Source of the DNA: a virus | Lineage: Duplodnaviria; Heunggongvirae; Uroviricota; Caudoviricetes | Direction: 5' to 3' (one strand) | IMG/VR virus record: IMGVR_UViG_3300013105_000002 | Span: 1-64,000 of that record | Length of the DNA stretch: 64,000 nucleotides | Part shown: positions 1,572 through 19,961 of the stretch, in pieces | Numbering within the stretch: position 1 is the stretch's first letter | Layout of the letters: each line of letters begins with the position of its first letter | Position numbers and translations under genes: made by a program | Notes under the pieces: model-generated | What the model was told of the DNA's origin: nothing | The model's database searches: none | Seen by the model: the letters and a program-made list of their open reading frames with translations, nothing else

Positions 1572-1655
1572 GCGGGTGTGGTGGAATTGGTAGTCACGCC
1601 GGATTTAGGTTCCGGTGCTCGTGAGAGCGTGTCGGTTCGAGTCCGACCATCCGTA
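1572..1655 (+). tRNA. tRNA-Leu (anticodon TAG), type II long variable arm
   Basis: hand-folded cloverleaf: acceptor gcgggtg/catccgt (2 GU), anticodon stem ccgga/tccgg loop tttaggt, T-arm gtcgg-ttcgagt-ccgac. Confidence 0.65.
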
Positions 1656-1793
1656 CAGATGTTGAAGCGTTGCGCAACGTGAATACATTCAGGATACAAT
1701 AGTTCAAGAAAATAGCCGCAGGAAGATAGAGCGCCTATTAATACTAGTTAATGGAAATGCACATTTATAGGTTGGGCTTGTATCCGAAACAAT

Positions 1794-1876
1794 GCCGGTG
1801 TGGTGGAATGGCAGACACGCTAGATTCAAAACCTAGTTCCCGCAAGGGAGTACGAGTTCAAGTCTCGTGGCCGGTA
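1794..1876 (+). tRNA. tRNA-Leu (anticodon CAA), type II; imperfect acceptor stem
   Basis: anticodon loop ttcaaaa, variable arm tcccgcaaggga, T-arm acgag-ttcaagt-ctcgt; acceptor has a G-G mismatch and 2 GU, so possibly degenerate. Confidence 0.5.
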
Positions 1877-1890
1877 CTTTAAGTAAATAT

Positions 1891-1976
1891 GCCCCCATGG
1901 CGAAACTGGAATCACGCAGCAGGCTCAGACCCTGTGCATTAAGTTGCTCTCGGTTCGACTCCGAGTGGGGGTACCA
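1891..1976 (+). tRNA. tRNA-Leu (anticodon CAG), type II, encoded CCA
   Basis: acceptor gccccca/tgggggt, anticodon stem gcagg/cctgt loop ctcagac, T-arm ctcgg-ttcgact-ccgag, ends ACCA. Confidence 0.65.
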
Positions 1977-2034
1977 TTGACGCACACCGCCCGGTGTGCT
2001 AGACTCCATCCGTAACTACAACCACGGAGGTACC

Positions 2035-2409
2035 ATGACTACGTACAAGAAGCAGTGGAAGAATATGACTTCCATGGAACAGAACGCGTTTCTATGGGCT
2101 GTGTCTGCGGACACTGCTGGCGACAGACTGATCGACAGGCTGTCTGATCTTGGTCGTGAGGGCAAGAATGACGTTCCCGAGTTTACCTTCACCATGCAGA
2201 TCAATGGTGTTGAGGTTGATGCTGAGCGTGTCATGGAGCGCATGGAGCAGGCGTGCGAGTACACCGCTGCTGTCAAGTCTCGTGAGGCTCTGGAAGCAAA
2301 GTTCAATGAATTCTCCGAGGCTTTTGAGCCAATCAAGAGCATCCTTGACGCTGCTGAGGCACGCCTCCGCGTTGATCTTGGTATCGAGAAGGACAGTTGG
2401 GACTACTGA
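2035..2409 (+). CDS. hypothetical protein
   Basis: ORF 1996-2409, start moved to ATG 2035 preceded by GGAGG; upstream part overlaps tRNA. Confidence 0.5.
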   Translation: MTTYKKQWKNMTSMEQNAFLWAVSADTAGDRLIDRLSDLGREGKNDVPEFTFTMQINGVEVDAERVMERMEQACEYTAAVKSREALEAKFNEFSEAFEPIKSILDAAEARLRVDLGIEKDSWDY

Positions 2410-2630
2410 TGCTGGATCGTACGTGTTACTTCAACAATGAGAATTGTGACAGCACTGGCAATTTCGCTGTTGTGCATACCACGAACGTCGGCTATCATAT
2501 CATGTGCAACCTGCATGCCCAGTGCTTCTCTGTAATCAAGCAGCATATCGCCAATCCTCACGAAGAGTTTGAGTGCAAAGAGCACCCCGGCGATCACTGG
2601 GTAAACGTCGTTCTCGTCCGTCTAGTTTAA
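2409..2630 (+). CDS. hypothetical Cys/His-rich protein
   Basis: ATGA overlap with upstream stop; 73 aa. Confidence 0.4.
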   Translation: MLDRTCYFNNENCDSTGNFAVVHTTNVGYHIMCNLHAQCFSVIKQHIANPHEEFECKEHPGDHWVNVVLVRLV

Positions 2631-2638
2631 GGAGATTC

Positions 2639-3460
2639 ATGCGTACCATTCTGGTGGGCTCTGCTGCAACTCGTGCGTGGCGTCCTGACTTCCGAGTCCC
2701 CTCCGACCTTGACTACTTCACCGACAAGGAAATGCCAAAGGAACTGAACGGCAAGCGTGTCGAGAAGTTCTATCACCCTGATCTGGAAAAGTGGAATTGG
2801 GCTGAGGAAAAGCCTATAGAACTTTTTGAAGGCGTATTGGTGGCACCTTCAAAGACCCGTGCCACTCTCAACGAACTGTACACGCTGAAGGTTTCTCACA
2901 TGTTCTGGCCCAACCGCTGGGTCAAGCATGCCAAGGACATTCTGTGGTTCCAGACAGAGACCGATGCGCAGTTCCTTCCTGATCTGTATGATATTCTCTA
3001 TCCCATCTGGGTGGAGCATTACGGAAAGAAGCGAGCCTCGCTGCCCAAGGGCACAAAGGCTGAGGATTTCTTTAAGTCCAACATCGTCCGAAAGTTTGAC
3101 CACGATTCGTTGCACGCGTCGGTGGCATACTATGATAAGCCTCTATTTGAGGTCATCCTTCAGGATGGAGAGGACGTTGCAGTCTCGTGGGAGAAATTCG
3201 AACAGATGACCCACACAGACAAGTTGCGCCTGTGCCGTGAGGAAATTTACGCCACTGCTCTAGAGCGCAAGGTGATACCTTCTGACTACACCGTCAACCC
3301 GCTGAGCGCCTACCGATGGGCGATGCAGCAGACCATCACTTCCTTCTGGAAGGGAAAGTGGGCACTCTTCATGGTGCTCAACTTGAAGGATTTGGTCGTG
3401 CCTGAGGTAGACTACGTTCAGGTCCATAAGGACAATAGTGAAAGGCTGGTAATGCTATGA
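2639..3460 (+). CDS. Pol-beta superfamily nucleotidyltransferase (unknown substrate)
   Basis: RBS AAGGAG + ATG 2639; N-terminal minimal nucleotidyltransferase motif LVGSAATRAWRPDFRVPSDLDYF (G-S-x13-D-x-D). Confidence 0.6.
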   Translation: MRTILVGSAATRAWRPDFRVPSDLDYFTDKEMPKELNGKRVEKFYHPDLEKWNWAEEKPIELFEGVLVAPSKTRATLNELYTLKVSHMFWPNRWVKHAKDILWFQTETDAQFLPDLYDILYPIWVEHYGKKRASLPKGTKAEDFFKSNIVRKFDHDSLHASVAYYDKPLFEVILQDGEDVAVSWEKFEQMTHTDKLRLCREEIYATALERKVIPSDYTVNPLSAYRWAMQQTITSFWKGKWALFMVLNLKDLVVPEVDYVQVHKDNSERLVML

Positions 3461-3804
3461 GTGACAAGAGAGATTTGCTGAATCTTGTAGAGGGCGATGA
3501 GGACAACTACAGCGGCTATGGTCCGTGGGAGAGGTTTGTTCCGGGCCGGGGTGGGTATGACGGTAGCAAGTACGTCAGTTATGACGGTAACGCCACGCTG
3601 TCAAATGGTGAAGAGGTGAGACTCGTTGCTCATTGGAACACTTTCGATGAGAGCGAGGTCTGGCACTCTGTAGTAAAGTTCCGTGGCGCTCTTTATGAGT
3701 TGGTCATCTACAACGACTCATGGAACGATGGTGGCATTGAACTTAACGGCATCTACCCGGTAGAGGCTCGTCAGGTGACCAAGACGGAGTACGTGCGAGC
3801 ATGA
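3457..3804 (+). CDS. hypothetical protein, DSW-motif paralog 1
   Basis: 115-aa ORF, contains YNDSWNDGG; ATGA overlaps. Confidence 0.5.
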   Translation: MSDKRDLLNLVEGDEDNYSGYGPWERFVPGRGGYDGSKYVSYDGNATLSNGEEVRLVAHWNTFDESEVWHSVVKFRGALYELVIYNDSWNDGGIELNGIYPVEARQVTKTEYVRA

Positions 3805-4214
3805 GTGATGTGCTGAAGGAACTTCAGGGAAAACTCGATGCTTATGATGCCAAGTATGTGGATGCATACGAGAACGAAGACCCACCGAAGGACGATTCCG
3901 ATGAGGACGTGGGGTCACTCTTGCAGGCTTGGGGACGCATGTATTCCGGCTGGGACATTGACCCAGAGAATCCATACCGAAAAGTGGAGAAGCCATTTCT
4001 CTACGCCCTACCGGGCGTCGGTACGGTTGAGGTTGTGGACGATGACGATGACCACTCTGATGGTCATACCCTTTACGTGATCTTCAAGTACAAGGGCCGC
4101 TATTTCCGTTACCAAGGGTGGGATGACTCATGGAGCGGTGACGGTGGATGGGAAGGGCCTCTTGAAGAGGTAGAGCCTAAGCAGGTAACAACGACAGTTT
4201 GGAGCAAGGTATGA
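3801..4214 (+). CDS. hypothetical protein, DSW-motif paralog 2
   Basis: 137-aa ORF, contains WDDSWSGDGGW; acidic. Confidence 0.5.
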   Translation: MSDVLKELQGKLDAYDAKYVDAYENEDPPKDDSDEDVGSLLQAWGRMYSGWDIDPENPYRKVEKPFLYALPGVGTVEVVDDDDDHSDGHTLYVIFKYKGRYFRYQGWDDSWSGDGGWEGPLEEVEPKQVTTTVWSKV

Positions 4215-4543
4215 AGGCCAAGAGGCTTGTTGATTTGATGGACGAGGGTCTGGTTCTCGATCCGGATGATGACTTTGAGCAGGTTGACTACGATCTGCTA
4301 AAGGAAATGATTCGTGACGAGTGGTCGGGAGAACTTGACGTGGATGGTGAGCGTGTAAAGTTTGAGAATGTTGATTCCATCCGTGACTATGATCAGTATT
4401 GGGTTGTCGTAAAGGTTGGAGAAGACCTGATCGGCATGTGCGGTTACTACGATTCATGGAATGGCACCGAGTGGTCAGACGCTGATCTTGTAGACGTAGA
4501 GTCTTACGAGACCGTCGAGAGGCATTGGAGGGAAAAGCAGTGA
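4199..4543 (+). CDS. hypothetical protein, DSW-motif paralog 3
   Basis: 114-aa ORF, contains YYDSWNGTEW. Confidence 0.5.
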   Translation: MEQGMKAKRLVDLMDEGLVLDPDDDFEQVDYDLLKEMIRDEWSGELDVDGERVKFENVDSIRDYDQYWVVVKVGEDLIGMCGYYDSWNGTEWSDADLVDVESYETVERHWREKQ

Positions 4544-4887
4544 AGTTCACCTTGGATGATTTGAAGCAGGCTGTGAAGGCTGGACATTTCACGTGTGACG
4601 ATGGATACTCTGGCGGACCAGAACGGGTGGGCACACTGGCCTACCTCCTATGGAATGACGAAAGTGTTTCGGTCAACGGTCACAGTGTCGAGGTACTTGA
4701 AAGCACTGACCTAGATCACGAGGACAACGATCACGGTAAGCCCGTCAAGGTTGTCTTCAAGGTCTATGACACAGTGTTCATTGCCGAAGACGTGTATGAC
4801 TCATGGGGTGGATCGCACTTTGACGATGATGATTGTGTGTCTGAGGCGGAGTTGGTAGATGTACCCACGTGGGTTGCCAAGCCTTAA
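4540..4887 (+). CDS. hypothetical protein, DSW-motif paralog 4
   Basis: GTG 4540 with GGAGGG 7 nt upstream; contains VYDSWGGSHFDDDD. Confidence 0.5.
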   Translation: MKFTLDDLKQAVKAGHFTCDDGYSGGPERVGTLAYLLWNDESVSVNGHSVEVLESTDLDHEDNDHGKPVKVVFKVYDTVFIAEDVYDSWGGSHFDDDDCVSEAELVDVPTWVAKP

Positions 4888-4911
4888 TTCGTCTGGTAGA
4901 CTGGTATAACT

Positions 4912-4950
4912 CCACCGGCCCGCTTTTTCTCACGGAAGTAGGGCCGGTGG
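4912..4950 (+). terminator. 10-bp stem hairpin (ccaccggccc...gggccggtgg) with 19-nt loop; terminator or protein-binding palindrome
   Basis: perfect inverted repeat after gene 4540-4887. Confidence 0.3.
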
Positions 4951-4972
4951 ACAAATACTTTAGGAGGCAGAT

Positions 4973-5188
4973 ATGAGCAACGCAAGTTCATTCTCATCTG
5001 TCGCTGCCAAGGCATTCTTGCGAGACAAGAGTGGAAACGAATACACGGGCGAGGCCCTGTTCCTAGCCATTCTGCTGCACTGCTCTGGTGGAGACAGAAA
5101 TGCGCAAGTGGAGAAGGAAGTCGCTGGTATGCTGGATGACGTTAATATCAAGGCAGACCAGCGAAACAAGAATAGGAAGAAGAAGTAA
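4973..5188 (+). CDS. hypothetical protein
   Basis: 71-aa ORF, RBS AGGAGG before ATG; basic C-terminus. Confidence 0.45.
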   Translation: MSNASSFSSVAAKAFLRDKSGNEYTGEALFLAILLHCSGGDRNAQVEKEVAGMLDDVNIKADQRNKNRKKK

Positions 5189-5511
5189 TGGTCACCCTAG
5201 AACCACACATTGACCACGACAAGTATTACGTAAAGACACCCACGAAGTACATTGGTATTCAGTGGAATGGTGCACCGGAGACTGGTCAGAAGATTCTGAG
5301 AAGCCTTGACATGGATGCAAAGATCGAGTTTACCCATGACGGCGTTCTTGAATTGAGGGTCAGGGACAAGGGTTTCGACTCTCTCGACTGGGTTTCAGTT
5401 CCTTTGGGAGCGTGGCTGGTAATCTCCGGATATGACTATATCAGAATGAAGACGCCCTTTGAAATCATGAGCGAAGAACGATTCCGCAAGGAATTCCAAG
5501 AACTAGTTTGA
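5188..5511 (+). CDS. hypothetical protein
   Basis: 107-aa ORF, TAATG overlap. Confidence 0.5.
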   Translation: MVTLEPHIDHDKYYVKTPTKYIGIQWNGAPETGQKILRSLDMDAKIEFTHDGVLELRVRDKGFDSLDWVSVPLGAWLVISGYDYIRMKTPFEIMSEERFRKEFQELV

Positions 5512-5518
5512 GGTAAAT

Positions 5519-6034
5519 ATGAGCCATCTTGTATTTCTGGACCTAGAGACAACAGGTCTGGACGAAAAGAAGCATCAGGTGTGGGAAGCGGCATATGCCA
5601 TTAACGATGACGATGTTAAGTCGTCACTTCTGAACCACGCTCTGAAGAATGCAAACCCAGTTGCTTTGGGTATCAATAACTATTCAGAGCGCATCAAGGC
5701 GTGGGTGGATACCAATTCTGGGTTCGCCGAGAGAAACGCATGGGAGACCAAGTTGCGTGCCGTCCTTGCAGGTGCTACGCTGGTCGCAGCAAACCCGACG
5801 TTCGACGCGACGATGCTGAAGGCCCGGTGGGGCGAGGCTCCATGGGCCTACAGAATGATTGACCTAGAGGCATACGCCATGCCATATCTAGGACTTGACA
5901 GGCCGCGAGGACTAGCGTATATTGCTGAGAAGTTGGGCGTTGAGGCACCTGACCACAGCGCACGTCAGGACGTAGTGACACTCAGACAGTGTTACCGTCT
6001 TCTACAAGACAAGTATCAGATTCCAAGAGGATGA
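5519..6034 (+). CDS. DnaQ-like (DEDDh) 3'-5' exonuclease
   Basis: Exo I FLDLETTGL, Exo II ANPTFD, Exo III HSARQD motifs. Confidence 0.8.
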   Translation: MSHLVFLDLETTGLDEKKHQVWEAAYAINDDDVKSSLLNHALKNANPVALGINNYSERIKAWVDTNSGFAERNAWETKLRAVLAGATLVAANPTFDATMLKARWGEAPWAYRMIDLEAYAMPYLGLDRPRGLAYIAEKLGVEAPDHSARQDVVTLRQCYRLLQDKYQIPRG

Positions 6035-6043
6035 GGTAATCAC

Positions 6044-6211
6044 ATGGCACGCTCTATGCTTAACAATCAAAGGAAAAAGCAAAGGGCGTGCCATTGTGGT
6101 AGAAACACCATTTACACTGGCGACAATGCCAAGTACAACAAGAAAATCGACGGCGTGGAAGTCTGCAATGACTGCTACGTGGACAGCATTAAGAAGAGGT
6201 TTGGACTATGA
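6044..6211 (+). CDS. small zinc-ribbon-like protein (55 aa)
   Basis: ATG 6044 after AGGTAA, CHCG...CNDC pairs; below the 60-aa track cutoff; ATGA overlap with next gene. Confidence 0.35.
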   Translation: MARSMLNNQRKKQRACHCGRNTIYTGDNAKYNKKIDGVEVCNDCYVDSIKKRFGL

Positions 6212-7005: not shown

Positions 7006-7030
7006 CAGACTGCCCCATAAGTTCTACCGA

Positions 7031-7234
7031 GTGGTAGCACATGGCACAGGAAAACTCAGAACATCCGAGCGTGCCAGTCAGACATATGCCAATAAGGTTC
7101 ACGCCGAGGCACGGGTTGACTGGCTGGCCGCTCGTGGTGTAGACTCTGATCTGTACGAGTCAGAGCCAGTAGTCTGGCACAAAATAAGCACTGACAAAGT
7201 TCCTGAGGGTCAAGACCCTCTCCCCTTCGATTGA
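7031..7234 (+). CDS. hypothetical protein
   Basis: ORF 6917-7234 overlaps upstream gene by 88 nt; in-frame GTG 7031 after upstream stop taken as start. Confidence 0.3.
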   Translation: MVAHGTGKLRTSERASQTYANKVHAEARVDWLAARGVDSDLYESEPVVWHKISTDKVPEGQDPLPFD

Positions 7235-7246
7235 CAGGAGCGATCC

Positions 7247-9294: not shown

Positions 9295-10278
9295 ATGGCG
9301 CTAAAGTACAATCTGGTTCACTACGGTGACCAGTCCAACATCACTGTCGTACTAGATGGTGAAATGTATGTGGCCGACAATGAGCATCCGAACTGGAATG
9401 CAATTGTCAAGGCCGTAGAGGCAGGCGACGAGAGCAATCTCGGTGACCTCTTCGACACCCAGAAGGCTATCGACTCTCGATTCAAGCGTGTTTCTGAGCG
9501 CGTCTCGGTGCGCGGTGGAAAGGTGCTCTTTGATGGTGACGCGGTGCACAACTCGCTCACTGACAAGATCATGCGTTTCCTAGAGGAAGACGTAGAGGAC
9601 TGGCAGCCGCTCGTTGCCTTCATGGAGAAGGTTTACACCAATCCTTCTGAGCACTCTCGTGACCAGTTGTTCGACTTCCTTGCGAGGAACGAGTTCTCTA
9701 TTACCCCTGAAGGCGATATCATCGGCTACAAGGGTCTGTACAGCAACGGTGACGGCACCTTTAAGTCTTGGCACTCTGGTGAGGCATTCGTCAATGGCGA
9801 GTTCCGTGTCGGCCAGATTCACCAGACCTACGGTGACGTTGTGGAAATGCCACGTTCGCAGGTTGTCTTCGATCCTGCTCAGGGCTGCACCGTTGGACTT
9901 CACGTGTCCAACCGTCGCTACGCAACGTCTTACGGTGATCACGTTGTGACCGTTCTGGTCAACCCACGTGACGTGGTTTCTGTTCCGGATCACGATAACT
10001 GGCAGAAGGTTCGTGTCTGCCGCTACACCGTTCTTGAAGACAGCGAGGTCGAACTGACCGATGCCGTCTACGAGCCCAAGCACCGTGCTCCTGTATTCGA
10101 CGTTCAGCCCAACCCGTATGTGGACGCTACGTCTGCATTCGATGAGGACGACGAGGATGAGGATGACGTGTGGGGCGATGGCGAGCCTGACTCGTGGGGT
10201 GACGATGAGGACGATTCGTGGAATCCTCCTTCGTTCCTGACGCAGCACCCATTCTTCGGCAGTAACTGGCCGTTCTGA
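9295..10278 (+). CDS. rIIB-like protein (by size and synteny), acidic DE/W-rich tail
   Basis: GGAG + ATG 9295; 327 aa immediately downstream of GHKL ATPase; C-terminal DEDDEDEDDVWGDGEPDSWGDDEDDSW. Confidence 0.45.
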   Translation: MALKYNLVHYGDQSNITVVLDGEMYVADNEHPNWNAIVKAVEAGDESNLGDLFDTQKAIDSRFKRVSERVSVRGGKVLFDGDAVHNSLTDKIMRFLEEDVEDWQPLVAFMEKVYTNPSEHSRDQLFDFLARNEFSITPEGDIIGYKGLYSNGDGTFKSWHSGEAFVNGEFRVGQIHQTYGDVVEMPRSQVVFDPAQGCTVGLHVSNRRYATSYGDHVVTVLVNPRDVVSVPDHDNWQKVRVCRYTVLEDSEVELTDAVYEPKHRAPVFDVQPNPYVDATSAFDEDDEDEDDVWGDGEPDSWGDDEDDSWNPPSFLTQHPFFGSNWPF

Positions 10279-10989: not shown

Positions 10990-11003
10990 TAAGAATTAAC
11001 GGG

Positions 11004-11031
11004 AGGGCCGGTATGTAAAAGTACCGGCCCT
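11004..11031 (+). terminator. rho-independent terminator
   Basis: stem agggccggta/taccggccct + T-rich tail. Confidence 0.6.
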
Positions 11032-11051
11032 TCTTTTATATAAGGAGTAGT

Positions 11052-11507
11052 ATGAGTAATAACGACTGGGAACCAGACCCGCAGATTGTAGCAGTGGTAG
11101 ATAAGAAAATGGTAGAAGTCAAGCGGCAATTCTTAGACAAGATGAACAATCCTGACGTTGTTGACGGAGACCCAAAGAGGGTGTACGTTGGTGTGAGCCA
11201 TGACAAGGCTCGTCAAATGCTTAGACTTGACTGGGAATTGAATACCGAGGTCATGCCAGATGCTTCCAACGAATTGATTGTGGACCTGATCCTGACTCAA
11301 ATGTCTGTCGATTTCTATGACATTCTAGAGAATGGAGACTCTTCAACTAACTACCCACTTTTGAGTCTTTTTGACGGAAAGAAGAAGGTTGGCAAGGACT
11401 TGGCAGATATTGAACTTGGAGATATTGCAATCTACAAGGAATGGATTCCGAATAAGAAGTCTGTTGAATATACAATCTACACGAGGTTGTCCCCAGTTTG
11501 GGCTTGA
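11052..11507 (+). CDS. hypothetical protein
   Basis: RBS AAGGAG; 151 aa. Confidence 0.55.
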   Translation: MSNNDWEPDPQIVAVVDKKMVEVKRQFLDKMNNPDVVDGDPKRVYVGVSHDKARQMLRLDWELNTEVMPDASNELIVDLILTQMSVDFYDILENGDSSTNYPLLSLFDGKKKVGKDLADIELGDIAIYKEWIPNKKSVEYTIYTRLSPVWA

Positions 11508-11542
11508 CAGCCAATATGTCAGGGTGATACACTTGGCATATT

Positions 11543-11616
11543 GCCTTCTTAGTTCAATGGCAGAATATTTCTTTCGTAATGAAAAGATGCGTGTTCGACT
11601 CACGTAGAAGGCTCCA
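11543..11616 (+). tRNA. tRNA-Thr (anticodon CGT, tentative), encoded CCA
   Basis: acceptor gccttct/agaaggc perfect, T-arm gcgtg-ttcgact-cacgt, anticodon loop ttcgtaa with one stem mismatch. Confidence 0.5.
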
Positions 11617-11642
11617 CCGGGTTCGTATGGTATACTGGCTCT

Positions 11643-12011
11643 ATGGCTTACAAAGACAAGCAACAGCAGCGAGAATTCCAGCGAGCATGGAGAACAAAGA
11701 GAAGGTCAGAGTATTTTCAGGGCAAGTCCTGCGCGGTCTGTGGATCGGTAGAGAGTCTTGAACTGGATCACATCGACCCTTCTCAGAAGAAGTACAACCC
11801 AGCAGCACTGTGGGGAATGTCAGACGACAATCCAAACAAGATCGCTGAGTTTGCCAAGTGTCAGGTTTTGTGTCTGGACCACCACAAGGAAAAGACTAAG
11901 GCTTGGCACGAGGCCAATAGAAGCCACGGAAGATCGTGGTACGCATATGGATGCAAGTGTGATATTTGTGTAGAGGCTCAAAGGCTACACAACGCACAGA
12001 GGTATTCATAG
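11643..12011 (+). CDS. HNH homing endonuclease
   Basis: CAVCGS...LELDHIDP...NLQ-like...CLDHH motifs; inserted between two tRNA-Thr genes. Confidence 0.8.
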   Translation: MAYKDKQQQREFQRAWRTKRRSEYFQGKSCAVCGSVESLELDHIDPSQKKYNPAALWGMSDDNPNKIAEFAKCQVLCLDHHKEKTKAWHEANRSHGRSWYAYGCKCDICVEAQRLHNAQRYS

Positions 12012-12017: not shown

Positions 12018-12089
12018 GCCCCGTTAGTTTAAATGGTATAACTTGTCCTTGGTACGGACAGATTACGTGTTCGATTCACGTACGGGGCT
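12018..12089 (+). tRNA. tRNA-Thr (anticodon GGT)
   Basis: acceptor gccccgt/acggggc, anticodon stem tgtcc/ggaca loop ttggtac, T-arm acgtg-ttcgatt-cacgt. Confidence 0.7.
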
Positions 12090-12146
12090 CGCGCCAGCGC
12101 CCGCTGGTTGTTTCGCAAGATTGACTCCAAAAAGGAGAAACACACT

Positions 12147-12371
12147 ATGAAGCACAATTACCTTAACCCCAAGCAGGCCCACAAGTACGTTGCTGACAAC
12201 GCTGAGAAGGGCAAGGATATTTTCTGGGATGGCTGGGATATCGTCATCTTCAAGAGGAACCCAAGCGGTTACATGGTAAAGAACGGAATGTTCCGTAACG
12301 GTCAGTGGGGAACCACTCGACGCGTCAAGGTTTCGGATCGCGGTACGTGGAGGCTTCCGGTTACGCCGTGA
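12147..12371 (+). CDS. hypothetical protein
   Basis: RBS AAAGGAG + ATG 12147; 74 aa. Confidence 0.5.
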   Translation: MKHNYLNPKQAHKYVADNAEKGKDIFWDGWDIVIFKRNPSGYMVKNGMFRNGQWGTTRRVKVSDRGTWRLPVTP

Positions 12372-12682
12372 ACTTTCTAGAGCAGTTGGGTCTTGACCCC
12401 GAGACATTCACATGGCACGATCTTGCCCTATGTGATGGCATTCCGGATGCCGACATGTACTTTGACAAGTACGAGAACGACAAAACGATAGCCAAGCAGA
12501 TAGATGAGATGTGCCTTCATTGCCCAGTGCTGAAGCAATGTGCTGAGACCGGCATGAAGAATCGTGAGCGTGGCGTCTGGGGAGGCATTTACTGGAATGG
12601 TTCAGGAAAGCCTGACGCTAACTTCAATGCTCATAAGAGCGAAGAGACGTGGGGAAAGATCAGGGAGAGGCTTAGCGAATGA
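12368..12682 (+). CDS. whiB: WhiB-family transcription regulator (Fe-S)
   Basis: 4 Cys C-x(n)-CLHCPVLKQC and GVWGG turn motif; GTGA overlap start (start uncertain). Confidence 0.7.
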   Translation: MNFLEQLGLDPETFTWHDLALCDGIPDADMYFDKYENDKTIAKQIDEMCLHCPVLKQCAETGMKNRERGVWGGIYWNGSGKPDANFNAHKSEETWGKIRERLSE

Positions 12683-14021: not shown

Positions 14022-14104
14022 TCTTCATGCCCTATTGGAGTAGAAGTAACTCGTTAGACCCTCAATCTAAAGTCCTCGGAGCGTTACCGGGATAGGGTAC
14101 CCAC

Positions 14105-14133: not shown

Positions 14134-14168
14134 GTGTCCATCATCAGTTCCAAACCTAAGGAGCACAC

Positions 14169-14396: not shown

Positions 14397-14566
14397 CCAT
14401 CAAGCAGATGTTCTACACCATGTACACTGCTGGTATGGTGTGCATTCTGATCACCAGCATTCCATCCACCAACCCGCTTTATGGCATCATCGCAACGCTG
14501 GTCATGCTGGCCGTTGCGCTGGTTGTCTACCTGCTCGTCTTCGCAGGAGGTACGCACCGTGGATAG
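14393..14566 (+). CDS. small membrane protein (57 aa)
   Basis: GTGA overlap; two hydrophobic helices; below ORF-track cutoff. Confidence 0.35.
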   Translation: MTIKQMFYTMYTAGMVCILITSIPSTNPLYGIIATLVMLAVALVVYLLVFAGGTHRG

Positions 14567-15050
14567 TCTATACGGCAAGGAATCGTACTCACAGTCCAAG
14601 TGTATTTTCCTCGCTGGTCCCATCGAGGCTTGGTGGGACACTCCTGAGAATCCCAATATGTGGAATTCTCCTGAGGCGGTGGCGTATCGAGAGCATCGCA
14701 CAAAGGTGGCTGACGCACTGGTTGCTGAAGGCTTCCTTGTGTACCGCCCGTGGGGTGCGTTCCGTGGAGACTGGAATGAGAAGTTCCAAGGTGTCAATGA
14801 CTATGTGCTTCTGCGTTCAGATGCAGTCACAGAACTGACACCGCCGAACACACCAGCGGTCGGTACGCGTCATGAGGTTGGCCTAGCACTTCGTAACAAG
14901 ATTCCTGTCATCGGCTTCCCTCCCGTTCCACCGGAGCACTTTGATCGATTCATGGAGCATCACATCAAGTACACGATTGATGCAATCGACAGGTGGGCGG
15001 TGTACCGTCAGGAGGCTCTTGACAGGGGCGATCTGCCTGTGCTAGACTAA
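14559..15050 (+). CDS. nucleoside 2-deoxyribosyltransferase-like protein
   Basis: GGAGG + GTG 14559; IFLAGPIE motif typical of nucleoside deoxyribosyltransferase family. Confidence 0.55.
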   Translation: MDSLYGKESYSQSKCIFLAGPIEAWWDTPENPNMWNSPEAVAYREHRTKVADALVAEGFLVYRPWGAFRGDWNEKFQGVNDYVLLRSDAVTELTPPNTPAVGTRHEVGLALRNKIPVIGFPPVPPEHFDRFMEHHIKYTIDAIDRWAVYRQEALDRGDLPVLD

Positions 15051-15065
15051 TACAACTGAATAATT

Positions 15066-15136
15066 GGGATATAGATGTTGTGGCCGCATGTCACCTTGCC
15101 ATGGTGATCGCACGGGTTCGATTCCCGTATATCCCT
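15066..15136 (+). tRNA. tRNA-Gly (anticodon GCC)
   Basis: acceptor gggatat/atatccc, anticodon stem tcacc/ggtga loop ttgccat, T-arm acggg-ttcgatt-cccgt. Confidence 0.75.
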
Positions 15137-15138
15137 CT

Positions 15139-15210
15139 GAGTCCGAGCCGGAGGCATCAGGAGTTGCACTGTGACTGCAATTATCGTGGGTTCGAATCCC
15201 ACCGGACTCC
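15139..15210 (+). tRNA. tRNA-His (anticodon GTG)
   Basis: acceptor gagtccg/cggactc, anticodon stem ttgca/tgcaa loop ctgtgac, T-arm gtggg-ttcgaat-cccac. Confidence 0.7.
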
Positions 15211-15227
15211 CTCAATAAAGGAGAATC

Positions 15228-15407
15228 ATGTATTGGAAGTTGGACGCTGAAATTTGGCGTGACGAAGAGGGCGGTGTAGTATACTACGTCGCCCAAAACT
15301 TTTCTGAAGACGGCTCAGACCCCGAGGTGCTGGCCAGCGGAGAAGCGACAGACGAGGAAGATGCCCGCAAGCAAGTCTTTCAGGCAATATCTGAGGTCTG
15401 CAAGTGA
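15228..15407 (+). CDS. hypothetical acidic protein (59 aa)
   Basis: strong RBS AAAGGAG; below track cutoff; GTGA overlap with next gene. Confidence 0.4.
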   Translation: MYWKLDAEIWRDEEGGVVYYVAQNFSEDGSDPEVLASGEATDEEDARKQVFQAISEVCK

Positions 15408-15631
15408 AGTTGGAAGAGGAACTAGAGTCCCATTTCATTGTGAACAACTATCAATGGAAGGTTGACGGAGAACTGGTTACACCTTCCGCCGATGACATTA
15501 GAAAGGTCATCGACCGTTGCAAGGAAATGCTTGGCGACGGTGGACAGATTGAAGTAGCGCGTCTCATCGTCCGAAGAGAGCGCAAGGAAGACCCATTCGA
15601 CATTTATGTCCATGTAGGAAATGAGGAATAA
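15404..15631 (+). CDS. hypothetical protein
   Basis: 75-aa ORF. Confidence 0.5.
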   Translation: MKLEEELESHFIVNNYQWKVDGELVTPSADDIRKVIDRCKEMLGDGGQIEVARLIVRRERKEDPFDIYVHVGNEE

Positions 15632-15632
15632 C

Positions 15633-16091
15633 ATGCAGGCTTATGAGACTTTTGTCTTCACCGATTACTCTGTCTTTGACTCCACCGCACTTCGTCGTGC
15701 GTGGTACAACAAGGACACAAACCGTCTTGTCGTGCAGTTCCGTGAGCGCGACAACTACGCAGGCTACAATGATGTTTCCCCCGACGAGTGGCAGGCCCTA
15801 AAGACTGCTCAGTCCGTTGGTGCATTCTACGCTTACAGCATCAAGCCGCGCAAGTCTGGATTCAGCACGCCGGATGAAATCCTGTTTGAGCGTCACTTCG
15901 ACCGCCCGGTGCAGAAGGTGGAAATCAAGGATTCTCCCACGTTCAAGGTCACCGCTCGTGTCTCTGCTGAGACGAGTGTAGACATTGCCGCTGGGAATAT
16001 TCAGGAGGCGATTGACGCTTTCACCAAGCGACTCGTTGAGGGTCTGGGCGAGAGCGTAGAAATTGATATCAAGGGAGTAGTTAGGAATTGA
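15633..16091 (+). CDS. hypothetical protein (possible KTSC-like domain)
   Basis: RBS GAGGA + ATG 15633. Confidence 0.5.
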   Translation: MQAYETFVFTDYSVFDSTALRRAWYNKDTNRLVVQFRERDNYAGYNDVSPDEWQALKTAQSVGAFYAYSIKPRKSGFSTPDEILFERHFDRPVQKVEIKDSPTFKVTARVSAETSVDIAAGNIQEAIDAFTKRLVEGLGESVEIDIKGVVRN

Positions 16092-16417
16092 CAGTAGTTG
16101 AAGTATCGAGTCTAGAAGGTCTAAACACCATCTTGACAAGCAATGATCAGGTTGTGGTAGACTTCGCAGCGCCTGCTTGGTGTGTACCGTGTCAGAGATT
16201 GGCACCACACTATGAGAAGGTGGCTGAGAAGTCTGAGGACGGGACAGTATTCGTGTCTGTAGATATTGACACGGCTGACGCCGATCTGGTAGGCTCCTAT
16301 CAGATTCAGTCGGTGCCCACCGTTCTGGCATTCAAGGCTGGTCAACCAGTCGGGCCGGTAGAAGGTAAGACTGGTCCAAAAATCATCAAAGAACTAGACG
16401 CTCTATTTAAGGAGTAA
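16088..16417 (+). CDS. thioredoxin
   Basis: WCVPC active-site motif in thioredoxin-fold context. Confidence 0.8.
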   Translation: MTVVEVSSLEGLNTILTSNDQVVVDFAAPAWCVPCQRLAPHYEKVAEKSEDGTVFVSVDIDTADADLVGSYQIQSVPTVLAFKAGQPVGPVEGKTGPKIIKELDALFKE

Positions 16418-16419
16418 GC

Positions 16420-16560
16420 ATGAACGCTCTACGCGATGCAGTTATCTCGCTAGTATATCTGGCAGGAGTCCCAACGCTTGCGTGGGGCGTTTCTGCTGCC
16501 ATCGACAAGGTTGGCGACTTCTTCAGGAAGGATGACAGCAATGATTCAACTGATCACTGA
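16420..16560 (+). CDS. small hydrophobic protein (46 aa)
   Basis: strong RBS AAGGAG 7 nt before ATG 16420. Confidence 0.3.
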   Translation: MNALRDAVISLVYLAGVPTLAWGVSAAIDKVGDFFRKDDSNDSTDH

Positions 16561-16813
16561 CAATTATGTGTGGATCACGGTAACCATCGCAATTCTTGCG
16601 GCTGCTGCCTTTATCGTCTGCTTCATTTGCAGACTTGACCACCGCGCAGGCTCCAAGAACAGGGCCATTCTGGCTATGTGGAGTCTTCGTTGGCTGGCTG
16701 TGTCGGCAACGTCTCCGCTCTGGCCTCTTGCGCTGCCTGTCGCTGTCCTGTATGGTGTGTGGAACGCGGTCAAAATCTGCCGTGCTGAGATTAAGGGAGA
16801 GGTGCCCGCATGA
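16532..16813 (+). CDS. small membrane protein, PLWP-motif paralog 1
   Basis: TM helices; SPLWPLALPVAVLYGVW. Confidence 0.5.
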   Translation: MTAMIQLITDNYVWITVTIAILAAAAFIVCFICRLDHRAGSKNRAILAMWSLRWLAVSATSPLWPLALPVAVLYGVWNAVKICRAEIKGEVPA

Positions 16814-17121
16814 TGTGGTTCTATCTGGTTCCGGCCATTATCGGGGTGGTTGTTTCCACCATCTGTGTCGTCGTAAACTACATTGACTGGAAGAGTGCAA
16901 TCAAGAATCTGGCAAGGTCACGCCGTGGCGGTATGTACTCCGTGGAAGAGAGAAAGCAGATGCTTGCACGTGGCGCATACCTGCTGAAAATGTCTTTCAG
17001 GTGGCTGATCATTTCTCTGTTCTGGCCGCTGGTTCCCCTCTGGGGCATCTACTGGCTTTTCAAGAACCTGCCTCAGATTTCTCGTCAGGTCAACAGCCAC
17101 ATTGCGGGTGAGTTTGAGTGA
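16810..17121 (+). CDS. small membrane protein, PLWP-motif paralog 2
   Basis: FWPLVPLWGIYWLF; ATGA overlap. Confidence 0.5.
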   Translation: MMWFYLVPAIIGVVVSTICVVVNYIDWKSAIKNLARSRRGGMYSVEERKQMLARGAYLLKMSFRWLIISLFWPLVPLWGIYWLFKNLPQISRQVNSHIAGEFE

Positions 17122-17381
17122 TTCTCTACATGTGGTTCAGCATCATCGCCACCGTTATTCTGGCTGTACACGCAGTCATCGCTGTGGTAGAGTGGTCAAG
17201 CGCTAGGAACGGTGGCTACAGCCGTGACCGCGTAGAAGTTGCCAAGCGTGCAACCTACGCCAAGTGGTCGATTGTAGCAATTCTGGCTGGCCCGCTGTGG
17301 CCGGTTGCCGTGCCCACAGTTGTGGTGTATGGTTTGTTCCGACTCTTCAGAGCACTGAACGACTCTGAGAAGACCAACTAA
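17118..17381 (+). CDS. small membrane protein, PLWP-motif paralog 3
   Basis: GPLWPVAVPTVVVYGLF; GTGA/ATGA overlap. Confidence 0.5.
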   Translation: MILYMWFSIIATVILAVHAVIAVVEWSSARNGGYSRDRVEVAKRATYAKWSIVAILAGPLWPVAVPTVVVYGLFRLFRALNDSEKTN

Positions 17382-17390
17382 GGAGAAACA

Positions 17391-18323
17391 ATGAAGCGAA
17401 TTATCAAGGGGCTCGCCGCTGGCGTCCTCGCTGTCGGTGTCATGTTCGGTACCGGAGCCTGTACTGTTCCGAGCACGTCCGGTGACGAGATTCTTGTCCA
17501 CCGTGGCGGCGGCGTGTTTGAGGACCAGTCCCCGAAGGGCTGTATCAACCCCGCTCAGCGCAGCGTGGAGGGTCCGGGTGACAACTACTACTCGTATCCC
17601 GCAAATCAGCGGACCTACAACTTCAATTCTGGTCAGGACGCCGATGGTCCTCCGATTGAGGTTGTGTCCAAGGATGGTCAGCGTCTGGCCATTTCTGGTA
17701 CGCTCTCGTTCAACCTGAACACGGACTGTAATGTCCTTCAGGCTTTCCACACCAAGGTGGGTAACCGTGAGCACGCTTACTTCGACAACTTCCCCGAGAC
17801 GCCTGCGGGCTGGGTGAAGGTTCTGAACACCTACATGCGACCGGCTCTAGATGCCACGCTTGACCGTACTGCAAAGCAGTATGACTGGCGTACGCTGTAT
17901 CAGGACGTGACGATCAAGGACAAGATGAATCAGGACGTGAATGACCAGATTCTCCGCCTCGTCAATGACCGTTTTGAGGGCAACGAGCAGTTCTTCATCA
18001 ACTTCTCTTCTCTGATTCTTCAGCCTCAGGCAGATGCCGACATGCTGAAGACTGTAAAGGACAATGAACTGTCCAAGGCTCAGGCTGCTGCTACCGAGTC
18101 CAAGGCAAAGGCAGATGCTGCCGCTGCTGAGGCCGCTGCAAAGTCTCAGGTCGCGCAGAAGGAAGCCGAGTTGAAGGTTGCCGAGATTCAGGCAAAGATC
18201 AAGCGCGCAGAGATTGACGCTTACGGTGGTATCAAGGATTACAACAACAACCTTGCCATCGAGAAGGGTCTTAACCCGTTCCAGCCGACCTACGGTGGAA
18301 GCGTTCTGACTCCTGCAAAGTGA
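17391..18323 (+). CDS. secreted lipoprotein with C-terminal coiled coil
   Basis: signal peptide + lipobox-like FGTGAC; Ala/Lys/Glu-rich coiled coil. Confidence 0.6.
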   Translation: MKRIIKGLAAGVLAVGVMFGTGACTVPSTSGDEILVHRGGGVFEDQSPKGCINPAQRSVEGPGDNYYSYPANQRTYNFNSGQDADGPPIEVVSKDGQRLAISGTLSFNLNTDCNVLQAFHTKVGNREHAYFDNFPETPAGWVKVLNTYMRPALDATLDRTAKQYDWRTLYQDVTIKDKMNQDVNDQILRLVNDRFEGNEQFFINFSSLILQPQADADMLKTVKDNELSKAQAAATESKAKADAAAAEAAAKSQVAQKEAELKVAEIQAKIKRAEIDAYGGIKDYNNNLAIEKGLNPFQPTYGGSVLTPAK

Positions 18324-18335
18324 CCTGAAGTAGTT

Positions 18336-18365
18336 GGGCGGCATGTGTTGACTCACATGCCGCCC
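18336..18365 (+). terminator. rho-independent terminator
   Basis: 12-bp stem gggcggcatgtg/cacatgccgccc. Confidence 0.6.
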
Positions 18366-18398
18366 TTCTGCTAGGCTAGCACCAACGACACCGAGTGA

Positions 18399-18731
18399 AT
18401 GGAGACGAACATGATGACTCTTCCGAATGGCTACCGTTGGGCTACTGAGGCTGAGACCGAGTGCTTTTGGCACGAGGCCGACAAGATCATGGTGCATGAC
18501 TCTGAATTTCCTGAGCACGCTGACGTGGCTCTCCCGACCTACCGCCCGGTGGGCTGTGATGCCGAGAATGGCAGTATCTCGTGGACCTGTGTTGACGAGT
18601 TCGGAGAGCACCCGTTCCACAACGACTGTGCCTTCATCATTCAGGGAATGAGTGACGGCTACAACCCTGACTCATACGACTGGTCTGACCACGAATACCA
18701 GAACTACATGTACGGCAGCAGCCGGTACTAA
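18399..18731 (+). CDS. hypothetical protein
   Basis: 110-aa ORF. Confidence 0.5.
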   Translation: METNMMTLPNGYRWATEAETECFWHEADKIMVHDSEFPEHADVALPTYRPVGCDAENGSISWTCVDEFGEHPFHNDCAFIIQGMSDGYNPDSYDWSDHEYQNYMYGSSRY

Positions 18732-18740
18732 GGAGAATCG

Positions 18741-18959
18741 ATGAATGAGTATGAGCGTCTTCTGGCCCGTAACACAAACCCTCCAACCACCCAGTGCCTT
18801 TTGAGCAATGCTCATGCCCCTCACGAGTGGTGGTACACATCATCGGGCGGTGGTCACATGCTATACACCATCGATGCGTCCGACCTAAACTGTGAGAAGG
18901 GTCTAAAGAAGCACAAATGCCCCGGACTTTCAGGTTGGACTTCTGATCACATGATGTGA
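18741..18959 (+). CDS. hypothetical protein
   Basis: RBS AAGGAG; 72 aa. Confidence 0.5.
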   Translation: MNEYERLLARNTNPPTTQCLLSNAHAPHEWWYTSSGGGHMLYTIDASDLNCEKGLKKHKCPGLSGWTSDHMM

Positions 18960-18998
18960 AGCCAGTTGTGCTATCATTATCTAACAGGAGGTGATGAT

Positions 18999-19172
18999 AT
19001 GGCATGGAAGCGCGAAGGTGGCGGTTACTCAAATGACACCGGCCTGCGCATCCTGAAGGTAGAAGACCCTGAAACGGGAAAGAACCTCTGGGGCGTGTTT
19101 GACCTGAACAACTCACGTGTTGGTGACCTTCACCGCACACTAAAGGATGCGAAGGCATCTGTAGACAGATAG
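18999..19172 (+). CDS. hypothetical protein
   Basis: RBS AGGAGG + ATG 18999. Confidence 0.45.
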   Translation: MAWKREGGGYSNDTGLRILKVEDPETGKNLWGVFDLNNSRVGDLHRTLKDAKASVDR

Positions 19173-19178
19173 GGCTTG

Positions 19179-19200
19179 ACACCGGCCTTCGGGCCGGTGT
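19179..19200 (+). terminator. hairpin terminator
   Basis: acaccggcc ttcg ggccggtgt. Confidence 0.5.
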
Positions 19201-19235
19201 AGGCTCGTCTCAACAGATCAAGCACAGGAGGAACA

Positions 19236-19961
19236 ATGGAATTCTACGAGGTTGGCGGGTGCGTTCGTGATGAACTGCTCGGTGTTCAGTCAAAGGACAT
19301 TGACTTCACTGTGGTTCTAGACAATGAAGACCTTATTGCTAGTGGTTCTGCAAATCCATTCAATGTGATGGTGCAGCGTCTAAACCAGATGGGCTTTGAG
19401 ATTTTCTTGAAGACTCCTGAGTTCCTGACCATTCGTGCAAAGTTTCCCAAGGGTCACGAGAATGCCAATCTTACGGCTGACTTTGTGCTTGCTCGTAAGG
19501 AAAGCGACTACACAGATGGTCGTCGTCCTGACAAGGTTGAGCCGGGTACACTTATGGATGACTTGCGGAGGCGAGATTTTACAGTCAACGCCATCGCCAA
19601 GGACTCTGAGGGAAACCTCATCGATCCGTTTAGTGGTCAGCAGGATATCAACGACCGAATTATTCGTGCCGTTGGCGACCCTTGTGACCGCTTCGAAGAG
19701 GATGCTTTGAGAATTCTACGTGCTATGCGCTTTGCCGTGACCAAGGGCTTCAAGATCGAGTATGAAACCCAGAAGGCCATGGCGGGATACGTGGAGACAG
19801 TGGCCGATGTGTCGGCAGAGCGTGTCCGTGAAGAACTGACAAAGATGTTCAACGTTGACCCCATGAGGACTATTCGTATTCTTGATGAGTTCGAAGTCTT
19901 GCACGTCATCTTCGATATGGGCATCAACTTTCAGCCGACCATGAAATCCAGAGTTAAGTAA
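19236..19961 (+). CDS. cca: tRNA nucleotidyltransferase (CCA-adding enzyme), head domain
   Basis: GGCVRDELLG...DIDF and RRDFTVNA motifs. Confidence 0.8.
   Translation: MEFYEVGGCVRDELLGVQSKDIDFTVVLDNEDLIASGSANPFNVMVQRLNQMGFEIFLKTPEFLTIRAKFPKGHENANLTADFVLARKESDYTDGRRPDKVEPGTLMDDLRRRDFTVNAIAKDSEGNLIDPFSGQQDINDRIIRAVGDPCDRFEEDALRILRAMRFAVTKGFKIEYETQKAMAGYVETVADVSAERVREELTKMFNVDPMRTIRILDEFEVLHVIFDMGINFQPTMKSRVK

Follow-up and report, generated by a model that had tools for sequence, protein, structure and literature searches.

Why does a gene for an HNH endonuclease lie exactly between two tRNA-Thr genes in the genome of a tailed phage, and how is it connected to the other tRNA genes and to the CCA-adding enzyme that the same phage encodes? 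We addressed this question for a stretch of 64,000 nucleotides (nt), in the following called the window, which comprises positions 1 to 64,000 of the IMG/VR virus record IMGVR_UViG_3300013105_000002 (Caudoviricetes). An earlier inspection of the letters, made without database searches (the sequence-only reading), had grouped the tRNA genes, the endonuclease and the CCA-adding enzyme into one tRNA supply and repair module. The reading that we favor, and to which we assign a probability of roughly three in four, joins three functions. Seven tRNAs in three clusters, each behind a strong sigma-70/sigma-A promoter, would be expressed to support translation of the phage, a minimal class II nucleotidyltransferase would complete the 3' CCA of these mostly CCA-less tRNAs, and the HNH gene would be a homing cassette linked to tRNA-Thr. 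The cassette lies at the exact 5' edge of a tRNA-Thr gene and would be transcribed from its own promoter, probably into a leaderless mRNA. By analogy to SegB of phage T4, the enzyme would meet an HNH-less allele during co-infection and cut it in or near a tRNA-Thr gene; repair of the break by recombination would then transfer HNH and the adjoining tRNA alleles to the cut genome.

The HNH gene (11643..12011, plus strand) encodes a protein of 122 amino acids, which matched phrog_4234 'HNH endonuclease' with E = 2.8e-33 and also five further HNH PHROGs. It starts 26 nt after tRNA-Thr(CGT) and ends 6 nt before tRNA-Thr(GGT). The PHROG match and these coordinates confirmed that an HNH endonuclease lies between two tRNA-Thr genes with these gaps, as had been read from the letters. 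The gene is intergenic: complete tRNAs are present on both sides, and no intron family from Rfam was found in the window. The Pfam family PF01844 did not match the window HNH itself, and its matches to the homologues P0030, P0031, P0050 and P0066 were precomputed.

The protein carries the pattern CxxC...DH...C..C..H, and the residues C30, C33, D42, H43, C73, C77 and H81 were invariant in alignments of 12 and of 40 sequences. A C-terminal cluster of residues (H95, G96, C104, C106 and C109) was likewise invariant in the 40 homologues. The AlphaFold2 model had a predicted local distance difference test (pLDDT) score of 90.8 and showed strands at residues 39-43 and 73-77 and a helix at residues 78-92. 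The putative catalytic histidine in the DH motif, the predicted metal-binding histidine in the helix and a zinc site composed of CxxC and C..C/H are the features expected for an HNH (His-Me finger) endonuclease. A Foldseek search with the model returned weak matches (E at least 0.4), nearly all of them HNH domains (Cap5, T5 SciA, GVE2 HNH), and the search of the PDB sequences with the HNH family profile gave no match. The protein belongs to the HNH superfamily, outside any structurally characterised subfamily.

Relatives of the locus were searched for independently of the HNH gene, with the neighboring gene for a WhiB-like regulator (12368..12682, plus strand; Pfam Whib, 43.2 bits) as an anchor. 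The search returned 160 loci, and the HNH gene was absent from all 160. In the closest of them, L114, WhiB was 74% and the flanking DNA 75-78% identical to the window. L114 harbors an empty site, in which Thr-CGT, a spacer of 60 nt and Thr-GGT follow each other in the order of the window and no HNH gene is present. The loci L052 (GGT, 111 nt, CGT) and L120 (GGT, TGT, CGT) are also without HNH. The site is thus occupied in the window, in L025 and in L026 and empty in L114, L052 and L120; in a second set of relatives, it is occupied in the mycobacteriophage HyRo and empty in ET08. In L027, the HNH gene and its Thr genes were found about 5 kb upstream of rIIA, while their position in the window is 1.3 kb downstream of rIIB. 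The sequence-only reading had regarded the HNH gene as a mobile insertion into the tRNA array, and the empty sites of HNH-independent relatives, the homologues at other Thr junctions and the relocation in L027 bear this out. The comparison of arrays with and without HNH turned up empty alleles, and not an HNH gene kept by all relatives at a different locus.

The two Bixzunavirus genomes HyRo and ET08 allowed a close view of an occupied and an empty allele. As far as the end of Thr-CGT, and then from the end of Thr-GGT onward, their sequences agree at about 100%, and only HyRo carries the HNH gene. The Thr genes adjacent to HNH were 73% and 81% identical between the two phages, and the non-adjacent Thr-CGT was 97% identical. 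In this pair the flanking alleles were replaced together with HNH, which is the pattern of co-conversion. Presence or absence at the same locus, replaced flanking alleles and varied junctions are together what is normally seen for free-standing homing endonuclease genes, and on this pattern we take the HNH gene to be one; cleavage of an empty allele and homing would be the processes behind it. We also considered that the window Thr genes had travelled with HNH from a mycobacteriophage lineage. This was not supported, as they were no closer to the Thr genes of HyRo than to others; the best match of the window Thr-GGT was the Thr-GGT of L027 (81% identity).

ET08 carries a different member of the family, 31% identical, 52 nt upstream of tRNA-Gly(GCC) (L016, 1501-1830), where HyRo has none. 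With this tRNA-Gly site, the array has two places at which an HNH gene is polymorphic, and several records leave the second one partly unannotated.

The distribution could also be the result of vertical inheritance, with an ancestral HNH gene among Thr genes that was simply retained or lost without any active homing. This would be in agreement with the proportion of synonymous differences (pS), which was near saturation between all compared relatives, so that no recent transfer is demonstrable in this phage group, and with the origin of the Thr-linked contexts, which stem mostly from one broad actinophage group (rIIA/rIIB, WhiB, DUF7275). However, the same clade occupies a Thr junction in Bixzunavirus, which has no megablast-level DNA match to the window region, and the junctions differ among the relatives (CGT/GGT, GGT/CGT, GGT/TGT, TGT/GGT and Asn/TGT). 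A simple deletion is insufficient for HyRo and ET08, which differ not only by HNH but also by the replaced tRNA alleles within nearly identical flanks, and the different family member of ET08 is located at another tRNA junction. We consider inheritance without homing highly unlikely.

The association with tRNA genes extends to the whole HNH family. The best annotated homologues of the window HNH are those of Bixzunavirus (cluster C) mycobacteriophages with 44% identity. The HNH gene of HyRo has Thr(TGT) 27 nt before it and Thr(GGT) 5 nt after it, which is almost the spacing seen in the window. In 12 of 15 diverse annotated phage contexts the HNH gene was located between or beside genes for tRNAs or transfer-messenger RNA (tmRNA) on the same strand. 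The junctions were Asp/Glu, Gly/Val, Trp/Leu, Lys/Met, Trp/tmRNA, Ser/Lys (two phages), Lys/Arg and Asn/Glu, and in further contexts HNH was upstream of Gln or upstream of Gly. The exceptions were Emma1919, Sf-CH1b and Bigswole, the last with a partial copy antisense to the tRNAs. The window HNH is a member of this tRNA-array-associated HNH family. The partial copy in Bigswole (L015, 1501-1743) is unannotated and lies next to Leu(CAA)-Leu(GAG)-Leu(CAG).

Metagenomic homologues with 53-91% identity were placed in their context and scanned for tRNAs, and these contexts were dominated by tRNA-Thr. The order Thr-CGT, HNH, Thr-GGT of the window was shared by L024 (HNH identity 100%) and by L025 (87%), where the last element is a relic of Thr-GGT. 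In L026 (73%) the order was Thr-GGT, HNH, Thr-CGT, and both L027-L030 (70%) and L032-L033 (61%) showed Thr-GGT, HNH, Thr-TGT. In L031 (66%), Thr-TGT preceded HNH and Gln followed at 130 nt. The HNH gene was followed by Thr-CGT in L196 (57%), by Thr-GGT at 152 nt in L197 (57%), and lay between Asn and Thr-TGT in L194 (53%). The next downstream tRNA was Thr in 9 of 10 contexts (window, L025, L026, L027, L032, HyRo, L194, L196 and L197), which corresponds to a binomial p of about 4e-6 at a background of 0.2 (the Thr fraction was about 0.18) for contexts that are not fully independent. In a neighbor-joining tree (no bootstrap), the Thr-linked HNH proteins formed one coherent group. The homologue P0026, which has only the N-terminal catalytic part in common with the window HNH, lies between two tRNA-Leu(TAA) genes. 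Because relatives that share the N-terminal part only adjoin tRNA-Leu, the comparison suggests the C-terminal region as the determinant of the tRNA junction or of the specificity. An HNH relative of this N-terminal-only type was seen between two tRNA-Leu(TAA) genes in L198 (1145-1636) and in L199.

Some of the tRNA genes next to HNH have unusual features. The element 3' of HNH in L025 (1912-1987) is a tRNA-Thr(GGT) relic or a non-canonical tRNA that ARAGORN does not call; compensatory changes preserve its acceptor and anticodon arms, and its T-loop reads AGCGTTA. The Thr(TGT) genes 3' of HNH in L027 and L032 have the odd T-loops GGTCAGTACC and GGTCGGTACC. The recognition of the T-arm motif GGTTCRANTCC by SegB had suggested altered T-loops in all HNH-adjacent tRNAs as a kind of target immunity. 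Altered T-loops do occur in the L025 relic and in the Thr(TGT) genes of L027 and L032, but the idea proved inconsistent since both Thr genes of the window are canonical. In L196 (3546-3620), ARAGORN called one gene of a phage tRNA array but assigned no identity to it; the anticodon, gtat, has four bases in an 8-nt loop.

The borders of the HNH gene were as conspicuous as its position. An extended -10 element, TGGTATACT (11628..11636, plus strand), is followed by GGCTCT and then by the ATG of HNH, and the whole arrangement spans 11628-11645. Except for L026, the promoter of the cassette ends 6-7 nt before the HNH start codon in the compared members of the clade. The junction reads TTGACW-17-TATAAT-GGCTCT-ATG in L027 and L032, TGATATAAT-GGCTCT-ATG in L025 and TACAAT-N7-ATG in HyRo; L031 has the same promoter motif as L027 and L032, within an over-called open reading frame (ORF). 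No Shine-Dalgarno sequence was found before the HNH ATG at the promoter-ATG junction. Because the promoter ends 6 nt before the ATG, the HNH mRNA is probably leaderless and made from the cassette's own promoter. Leaderless mRNAs are a common arrangement in Actinobacteria. L026 differs in that the HNH ATG follows 2 nt after tRNA-Thr(GGT), and the 3' strand of the tRNA acceptor provides AGGAGG at the Shine-Dalgarno position (9998-10003).

At the other end, the HNH stop codon was at most 6 nt from the next tRNA or tmRNA, or 9-39 nt inside it, in 15 of 19 contexts. Cleavage of a read-through transcript by ribonuclease P (RNase P) would trim or remove the HNH stop codon.

The favored joint reading further requires that the tRNA genes of the window are genuine and expressed. 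ARAGORN called seven tRNAs in three clusters with exactly the coordinates of the sequence-only reading, and all seven exceeded the Rfam gathering score for tRNAs of 29 bits. Six of them were already found in the scan of the whole window; Leu-CAG was missed there through the speed filters only and reached 43.7 bits with permissive filters. All are encoded on the plus strand. The first cluster comprises tRNA-Leu(TAG) (1572..1656, 52.4 bits), tRNA-Leu(CAA) (1794..1877, 39.7 bits) and tRNA-Leu(CAG) (1891..1976). The second consists of tRNA-Thr(CGT) (11543..11616, 59.8 bits) on the upstream flank of HNH and tRNA-Thr(GGT) (12018..12090, 56.5 bits) downstream of it, and the third of tRNA-Gly(GCC) (15066..15137, 47 bits) and tRNA-His(GTG) (15139..15211, 39.2 bits). 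The 3' CCA is encoded by only two of the seven genes, Leu-CAG and Thr-CGT, and is lacking in Leu-TAG, Leu-CAA, Thr-GGT, Gly-GCC and His-GTG.

Leu-CAA had been suspected to be a pseudo-tRNA with a degenerate acceptor stem. The stem does have defects, namely two G.U pairs and a G.G mismatch at 7-66, and the anticodon stem contains an A.C pair. The classification as a pseudo-tRNA is unlikely in view of the score of 39.7 bits and of the orthologue in L026, the acceptor stem of which is fully paired through compensatory changes. The tRNA is probably functional. With its irregular D arm and variable arm, Leu-CAG is the less orthodox gene of the two, and it has no counterpart in L026. A further peculiarity was seen for tRNA-His(GTG), which is one nucleotide apart from tRNA-Gly: with T at position -1 and C73, no G-1 is encoded by the genome. 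Bacterial histidyl-tRNA synthetase normally requires G-1.

Each tRNA cluster has its own promoter. A scan of the sequence for promoters revealed 30 promoter-like sites compared to 15.4 +/- 4.2 expected, and the three best TG-extended sites lay directly before the three tRNA clusters. The sigma-70/sigma-A-type promoter TTGACA-17-TAGAAT with TG extension (1499..1527, plus strand) matches the consensus at 11 of 12 positions and is located 45 nt upstream of Leu-TAG. The promoter TTGACA-18-TACACT with TG (11504..11533, plus strand) ends 10 nt before tRNA-Thr(CGT); L025 retains its -35 element, and an equivalent promoter is present in L114. A third promoter, TTGACA-18-TAGACT with TG (15019..15048, plus strand), would drive the tRNA-Gly/His pair. 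A strong intrinsic terminator with a 14-bp stem and a T run (11001..11034, plus strand) closes the operon upstream of the Thr locus, and it is conserved in L025 and L114.

The gene at 19236..19961 (plus strand), which had been proposed to encode a CCA-adding enzyme, indeed encodes a class II tRNA nucleotidyltransferase of the CCA-adding type by its domains and motifs. The protein of 241 amino acids consists of head and neck, which matched the Pfam families PolyA_pol (1.9e-22) and PolyA_pol_RNAbd (3.6e-12), both above the cut-offs, and it matched phrog_24229 'tRNA nucleotidyltransferase' with 4.8e-63. Motifs A (GGCVRD..DID), B (RRDFTVNA) and D (EDALRILRA) were intact when aligned to 6ibp, and the CCA-adding enzymes 6ibp and 1miv were the best solved relatives. 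Homologues were present in 503 phage records, and the closest of them (44-53% identical) are equally short. About 60 residues are inserted between motif A and the part that can be aligned to solved enzymes (query residues 24-86, compared to about 40 residues in 6ibp), in the flexible-loop region of class II enzymes. Because five of the seven phage tRNAs have no CCA, a role in tRNA maturation is the simplest reading: phage tRNAs most likely receive or regain their 3' CCA from this enzyme, and host tRNAs possibly do so too. The second nucleotidyltransferase that had been listed besides the CCA enzyme was not found; Pfam scans of the 40 ORFs between 85 and 21997 revealed neither a further nucleotidyltransferase nor RNA ligase, Pnkp or RtcB.

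Several observations weigh against the joint reading. The nucleotidyltransferase ends after the neck at residue 241 and has no body and tail domains, which bind the tRNA elbow, and the ORFs downstream of it gave no Pfam match. It also scored below every NCBIfam equivalog cut-off, with 163.9 bits compared to 290 for the best model; the best NCBIfam matches were CCA-adding types, and the PcnB and A-adding models matched too. The CCA-adding specificity is therefore a putative one. For the HNH gene, most of the Thr-clade contexts were found via HNH itself and are phylogenetically not fully independent, and co-conversion left a clear signature in no comparison but the Bixzunavirus pair; for the window and L114, the identities were 64-70% in the flanking tRNAs and only slightly higher, 75-78%, in the flanks. 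The high identity of the HNH gene itself is also no proof of recent horizontal transfer. Between the window and L025, HNH was 87% identical compared to 46-69% for its neighbors, and between the window and L027 the values were 70% and 33-39%. We rejected this argument for transfer since synonymous sites were near saturation, with a pS to L025 of 0.62 for HNH, 0.72-0.92 for most neighbors and 0.44 for o91. The conservation of HNH is due to a low number of nonsynonymous substitutions per site (dN), which was 0.08 by the Nei-Gojobori method, compared to 0.19-0.48 for the neighbors, and the lowest of nine genes. With a dN/dS of about 0.06 in comparison to L025, the HNH gene is, as judged from these substitutions, under strong purifying selection, stronger than expected of a purely selfish, decaying element.

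This strong purifying selection leaves room for a domesticated role, in which the HNH gene would be kept for the benefit of the phage, for example to amplify or exchange tRNA-Thr genes, as described for SegB and tRNA-Tyr under attack by Septu, or to exclude co-infecting relatives. In addition to the low dN/dS and dN, the catalytic and zinc-binding residues that are invariant across 40 homologues and the conserved dedicated promoter are in line with such a role. The same applies to the HNH-adjacent Thr genes, which vary in number, order and anticodon among relatives, and to the precedent of SegB, for which adaptive amplification of tRNA loci was shown (PMC13096335). On the other hand, a gene that homes actively stays under purifying selection without any further benefit, neither the Thr genes nor HNH are amplified in tandem in the window, and the HNH gene is dispensable because it is absent from L114 and from all 160 WhiB-anchored relatives. 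We consider domestication unlikely and prefer homing as the explanation for the HNH gene.

The tRNA set itself showed a relation to the codons of the phage. The share of CTA among the Leu codons was 25.2% in genes beyond 47 kb and 12.4% in genes before 42 kb (odds ratio 2.4, p = 1.6e-6), and the share of TTG was 21.4% in late structural genes compared to 13.4% in early genes (p = 0.002). These are the codons that are read by Leu-TAG and Leu-CAA. The result gives direct but modest support to codon supply by the phage tRNAs; that the comparison covered the side of the phage alone is a further point to be held against the joint reading.

The phage tRNAs may alternatively serve to replace host tRNAs that were destroyed by tRNA-targeting immunity, with the CCA enzyme repairing clipped ends and the HNH gene as a passenger. 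Such a function of phage tRNAs is a published hypothesis (PMC10264068), T5 tRNAs act against PARIS and retrons (PMC11464382, PMC11555353), and phage CCA-adding enzymes were proposed as repair enzymes in the conflict of host and phage (PMC7824862). An immunity that cleaves the CCA tails of tRNAs exists, and the phage counter-measure to it was described as unknown (PMC12851939). A toxin that targets tRNA-Thr(GGU) was also reported (PMC13617354). The early-type promoters of the tRNAs and a nearby gene for a NADAR-domain protein, a possible anti-defence gene, fit to this view as well. Within the window, nothing defence-specific was found, PADLOC gave no defence-system match for the HNH protein, the CCA enzyme, the phosphoesterase or the SPFH protein, and the lack of RNA ligase, Pnkp and RtcB among the 40 scanned ORFs of the region does not favor a repair function. 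Codon supply is sufficient to explain the tRNA set without defence, because the set matches the codons enriched in late genes. The components are moreover dispersed and form no operon. The three tRNA clusters, the HNH gene and the CCA gene are present, as the sequence-only reading had stated, but the linkage implied by the word module was not confirmed: they are spread over 18 kb among about 50 early genes, the clusters have separate promoters, and the CCA gene lies 4 kb from the nearest tRNA. An anti-defence role of the set is possible but doubtful.

The closest known counterparts of the HNH cassette come from other phage groups. SegB is a GIY-YIG homing endonuclease in the tRNA cluster of T4 that recognises the T-arm motif and leads to preferential inheritance of the tRNA region (PMC2330249). 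It amplifies tRNA-Tyr and thereby allows escape from Septu, and homologues of segB show a strong tendency to lie with tRNA genes, whatever the isotype (PMC13096335). Like the window HNH, SegB is encoded by a free-standing endonuclease gene between tRNA genes, its family is associated with tRNAs, it is missing from homologous tRNA regions of close relatives, and flanking tRNA genes are co-inherited or replaced. Unlike SegB, the window HNH has the HNH fold and not GIY-YIG, without any sequence relationship, belongs to phages with actinobacterial hosts and has its own promoter abutting the ATG. Its clade is tied to tRNA-Thr, in contrast to the segB homologues with no isotype preference. The T5 enzymes, as far as they are cited in PMC2330249, resemble the window HNH as HNH-type site-specific endonucleases encoded by ORFs in a phage tRNA gene cluster. 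By analogy, we regard the window HNH as the HNH counterpart of T4 SegB and T5 F-Tfl. No Tequintavirus was among the names listed for 162 tblastn matches at E <= 1e-5 (about 60 listed individually), and the sole T5 HNH encountered was SciA, a weak Foldseek match with E = 1.0.

Processing-linked down-regulation was proposed for SegB and the T5 enzymes (PMC2330249). Taking the analogy further, the window HNH might cut within tRNA-Thr genes and drive exchange, reshuffling or amplification of Thr isoacceptors when the host attacks tRNA-Thr, while RNase P, by trimming the mRNA within or right at the stop codon, would hold down the output of HNH. In combination with the CCA enzyme and the mostly CCA-less tRNAs, this would make up a tRNA system that the phage can adapt independently of the host. 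We regard this extended scenario as rather improbable.

HNH endonucleases are reported to be the most widespread coding sequence in the tRNA arrays of mycobacteria and mycobacteriophages and have been implicated in the diversity of tRNA repertoires (PMC5966550, PMC6409571). The HNH proteins of HyRo, LilhomieP and Crossroads belong to the same protein family as the window HNH (38-46% identical) and have the same position inside tRNA arrays. Pope et al. (2014) reportedly described HNH genes in the tRNA arrays of mycobacteriophage clusters C, M and L. The window phage differs from these clusters, as it belongs to no known cluster and has a small array of seven tRNAs in three clusters. In the literature searched, which did not include the original article of Pope et al. 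(2014), we found no description of a Thr-specific clade or of the promoter-ATG and stop-tRNA junctions.

The nucleotidyltransferase shares head, neck and the motifs A (GGxVRD..DxD), B (RRD) and D (EDxxR, the motif for nucleotide selection) with the enzymes of G. stearothermophilus (1miv) and Planococcus (6ibp). It differs from the cellular class II enzymes by the lack of the body and tail of about 160 residues, and it resembles in length the short enzymes of Microbacterium, Arthrobacter and Synechococcus phages (phrog_24229), to which it is 44-53% identical. No biochemical characterisation of this short phage form was found in the literature searched.

HNH genes in actinophage tRNA arrays were published before, and the tRNAs, the short CCA enzyme and the HNH gene are each a further example of known phage features; none of these findings will be unexpected to specialists. 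The locus adds a clean sequence-level example of an HNH lineage that keeps to a single tRNA isotype, Thr, in actinophages that are unrelated to each other, and the defined occupied and empty alleles (window and L114, HyRo and ET08) could be used to map the target of the enzyme. If this target lies in the tRNA-Thr genes, this would help to explain the shuffling of phage tRNA repertoires and would extend the result for SegB, a homing endonuclease that drives the dosage of anti-defence tRNAs, to the HNH family and to Actinobacteria. CCA-adding enzymes of the short phage family are widespread and apparently uncharacterised, and they are an obvious candidate counter-measure to immunity that clips the 3' tail of tRNAs.

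The tRNA genes and their surroundings are best explained as a portion of the early or accessory arm in the genome of a large, lytic actinobacterial phage of the rIIA/rIIB and WhiB type with a G+C content of about 50%. Family scans identified genes for rIIA, rIIB, a metallophosphoesterase, an exonuclease, thioredoxin, an SPFH protein, NADAR and the WhiB-like regulator in this region, and ribonucleotide reductase, portal, protease and head genes beyond 43 kb. Because the phage encodes a WhiB-like regulator, its host is presumably an actinobacterium. Among 50,697 phage records (INPHARED), we found no relatives at the DNA level except for an 87-nt tRNA-Leu match to Aeromonas phage Aeh1. The search of IMG/VR via HNH yielded a spurious HNH fragment (L002) only, the search via o151 yielded nothing, and the search via rIIB returned only relatives with 31% identity. 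Among metagenomic contigs, L025, L026 and L114 share synteny with the window and are true relatives of it.

An ORF of 151 amino acids (11052-11507) lies between the terminator at 11001-11034 and the Thr promoter and had no family match. It is present in the window and in L025 and is not found in L114 or L026, which makes it a second indel polymorphism adjoining the Thr locus. The NADAR-domain protein is encoded at 21467-21997 (Pfam 2.3e-25), and its similarity to the PADLOC candidate PDC-M42C was weak; the protein may be an enzyme for the removal of adenosine diphosphate (ADP) ribosylation that counters host defence. The distant relatives L027, L031 and L032 have 17-24 tRNAs and a tmRNA each. 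L027 (566-1042 and 6725-7084) includes an ORF with a PCRF/RF-1 domain, L031 (82-1614 and 12641-13405) encodes NAMPT/NAPRTase and a transporter for nicotinamide mononucleotide, and L032 (10886-11353) encodes a Macro domain. Together, these three relatives show an accessory arm rich in functions related to translation rescue and to nicotinamide adenine dinucleotide and ADP-ribose.

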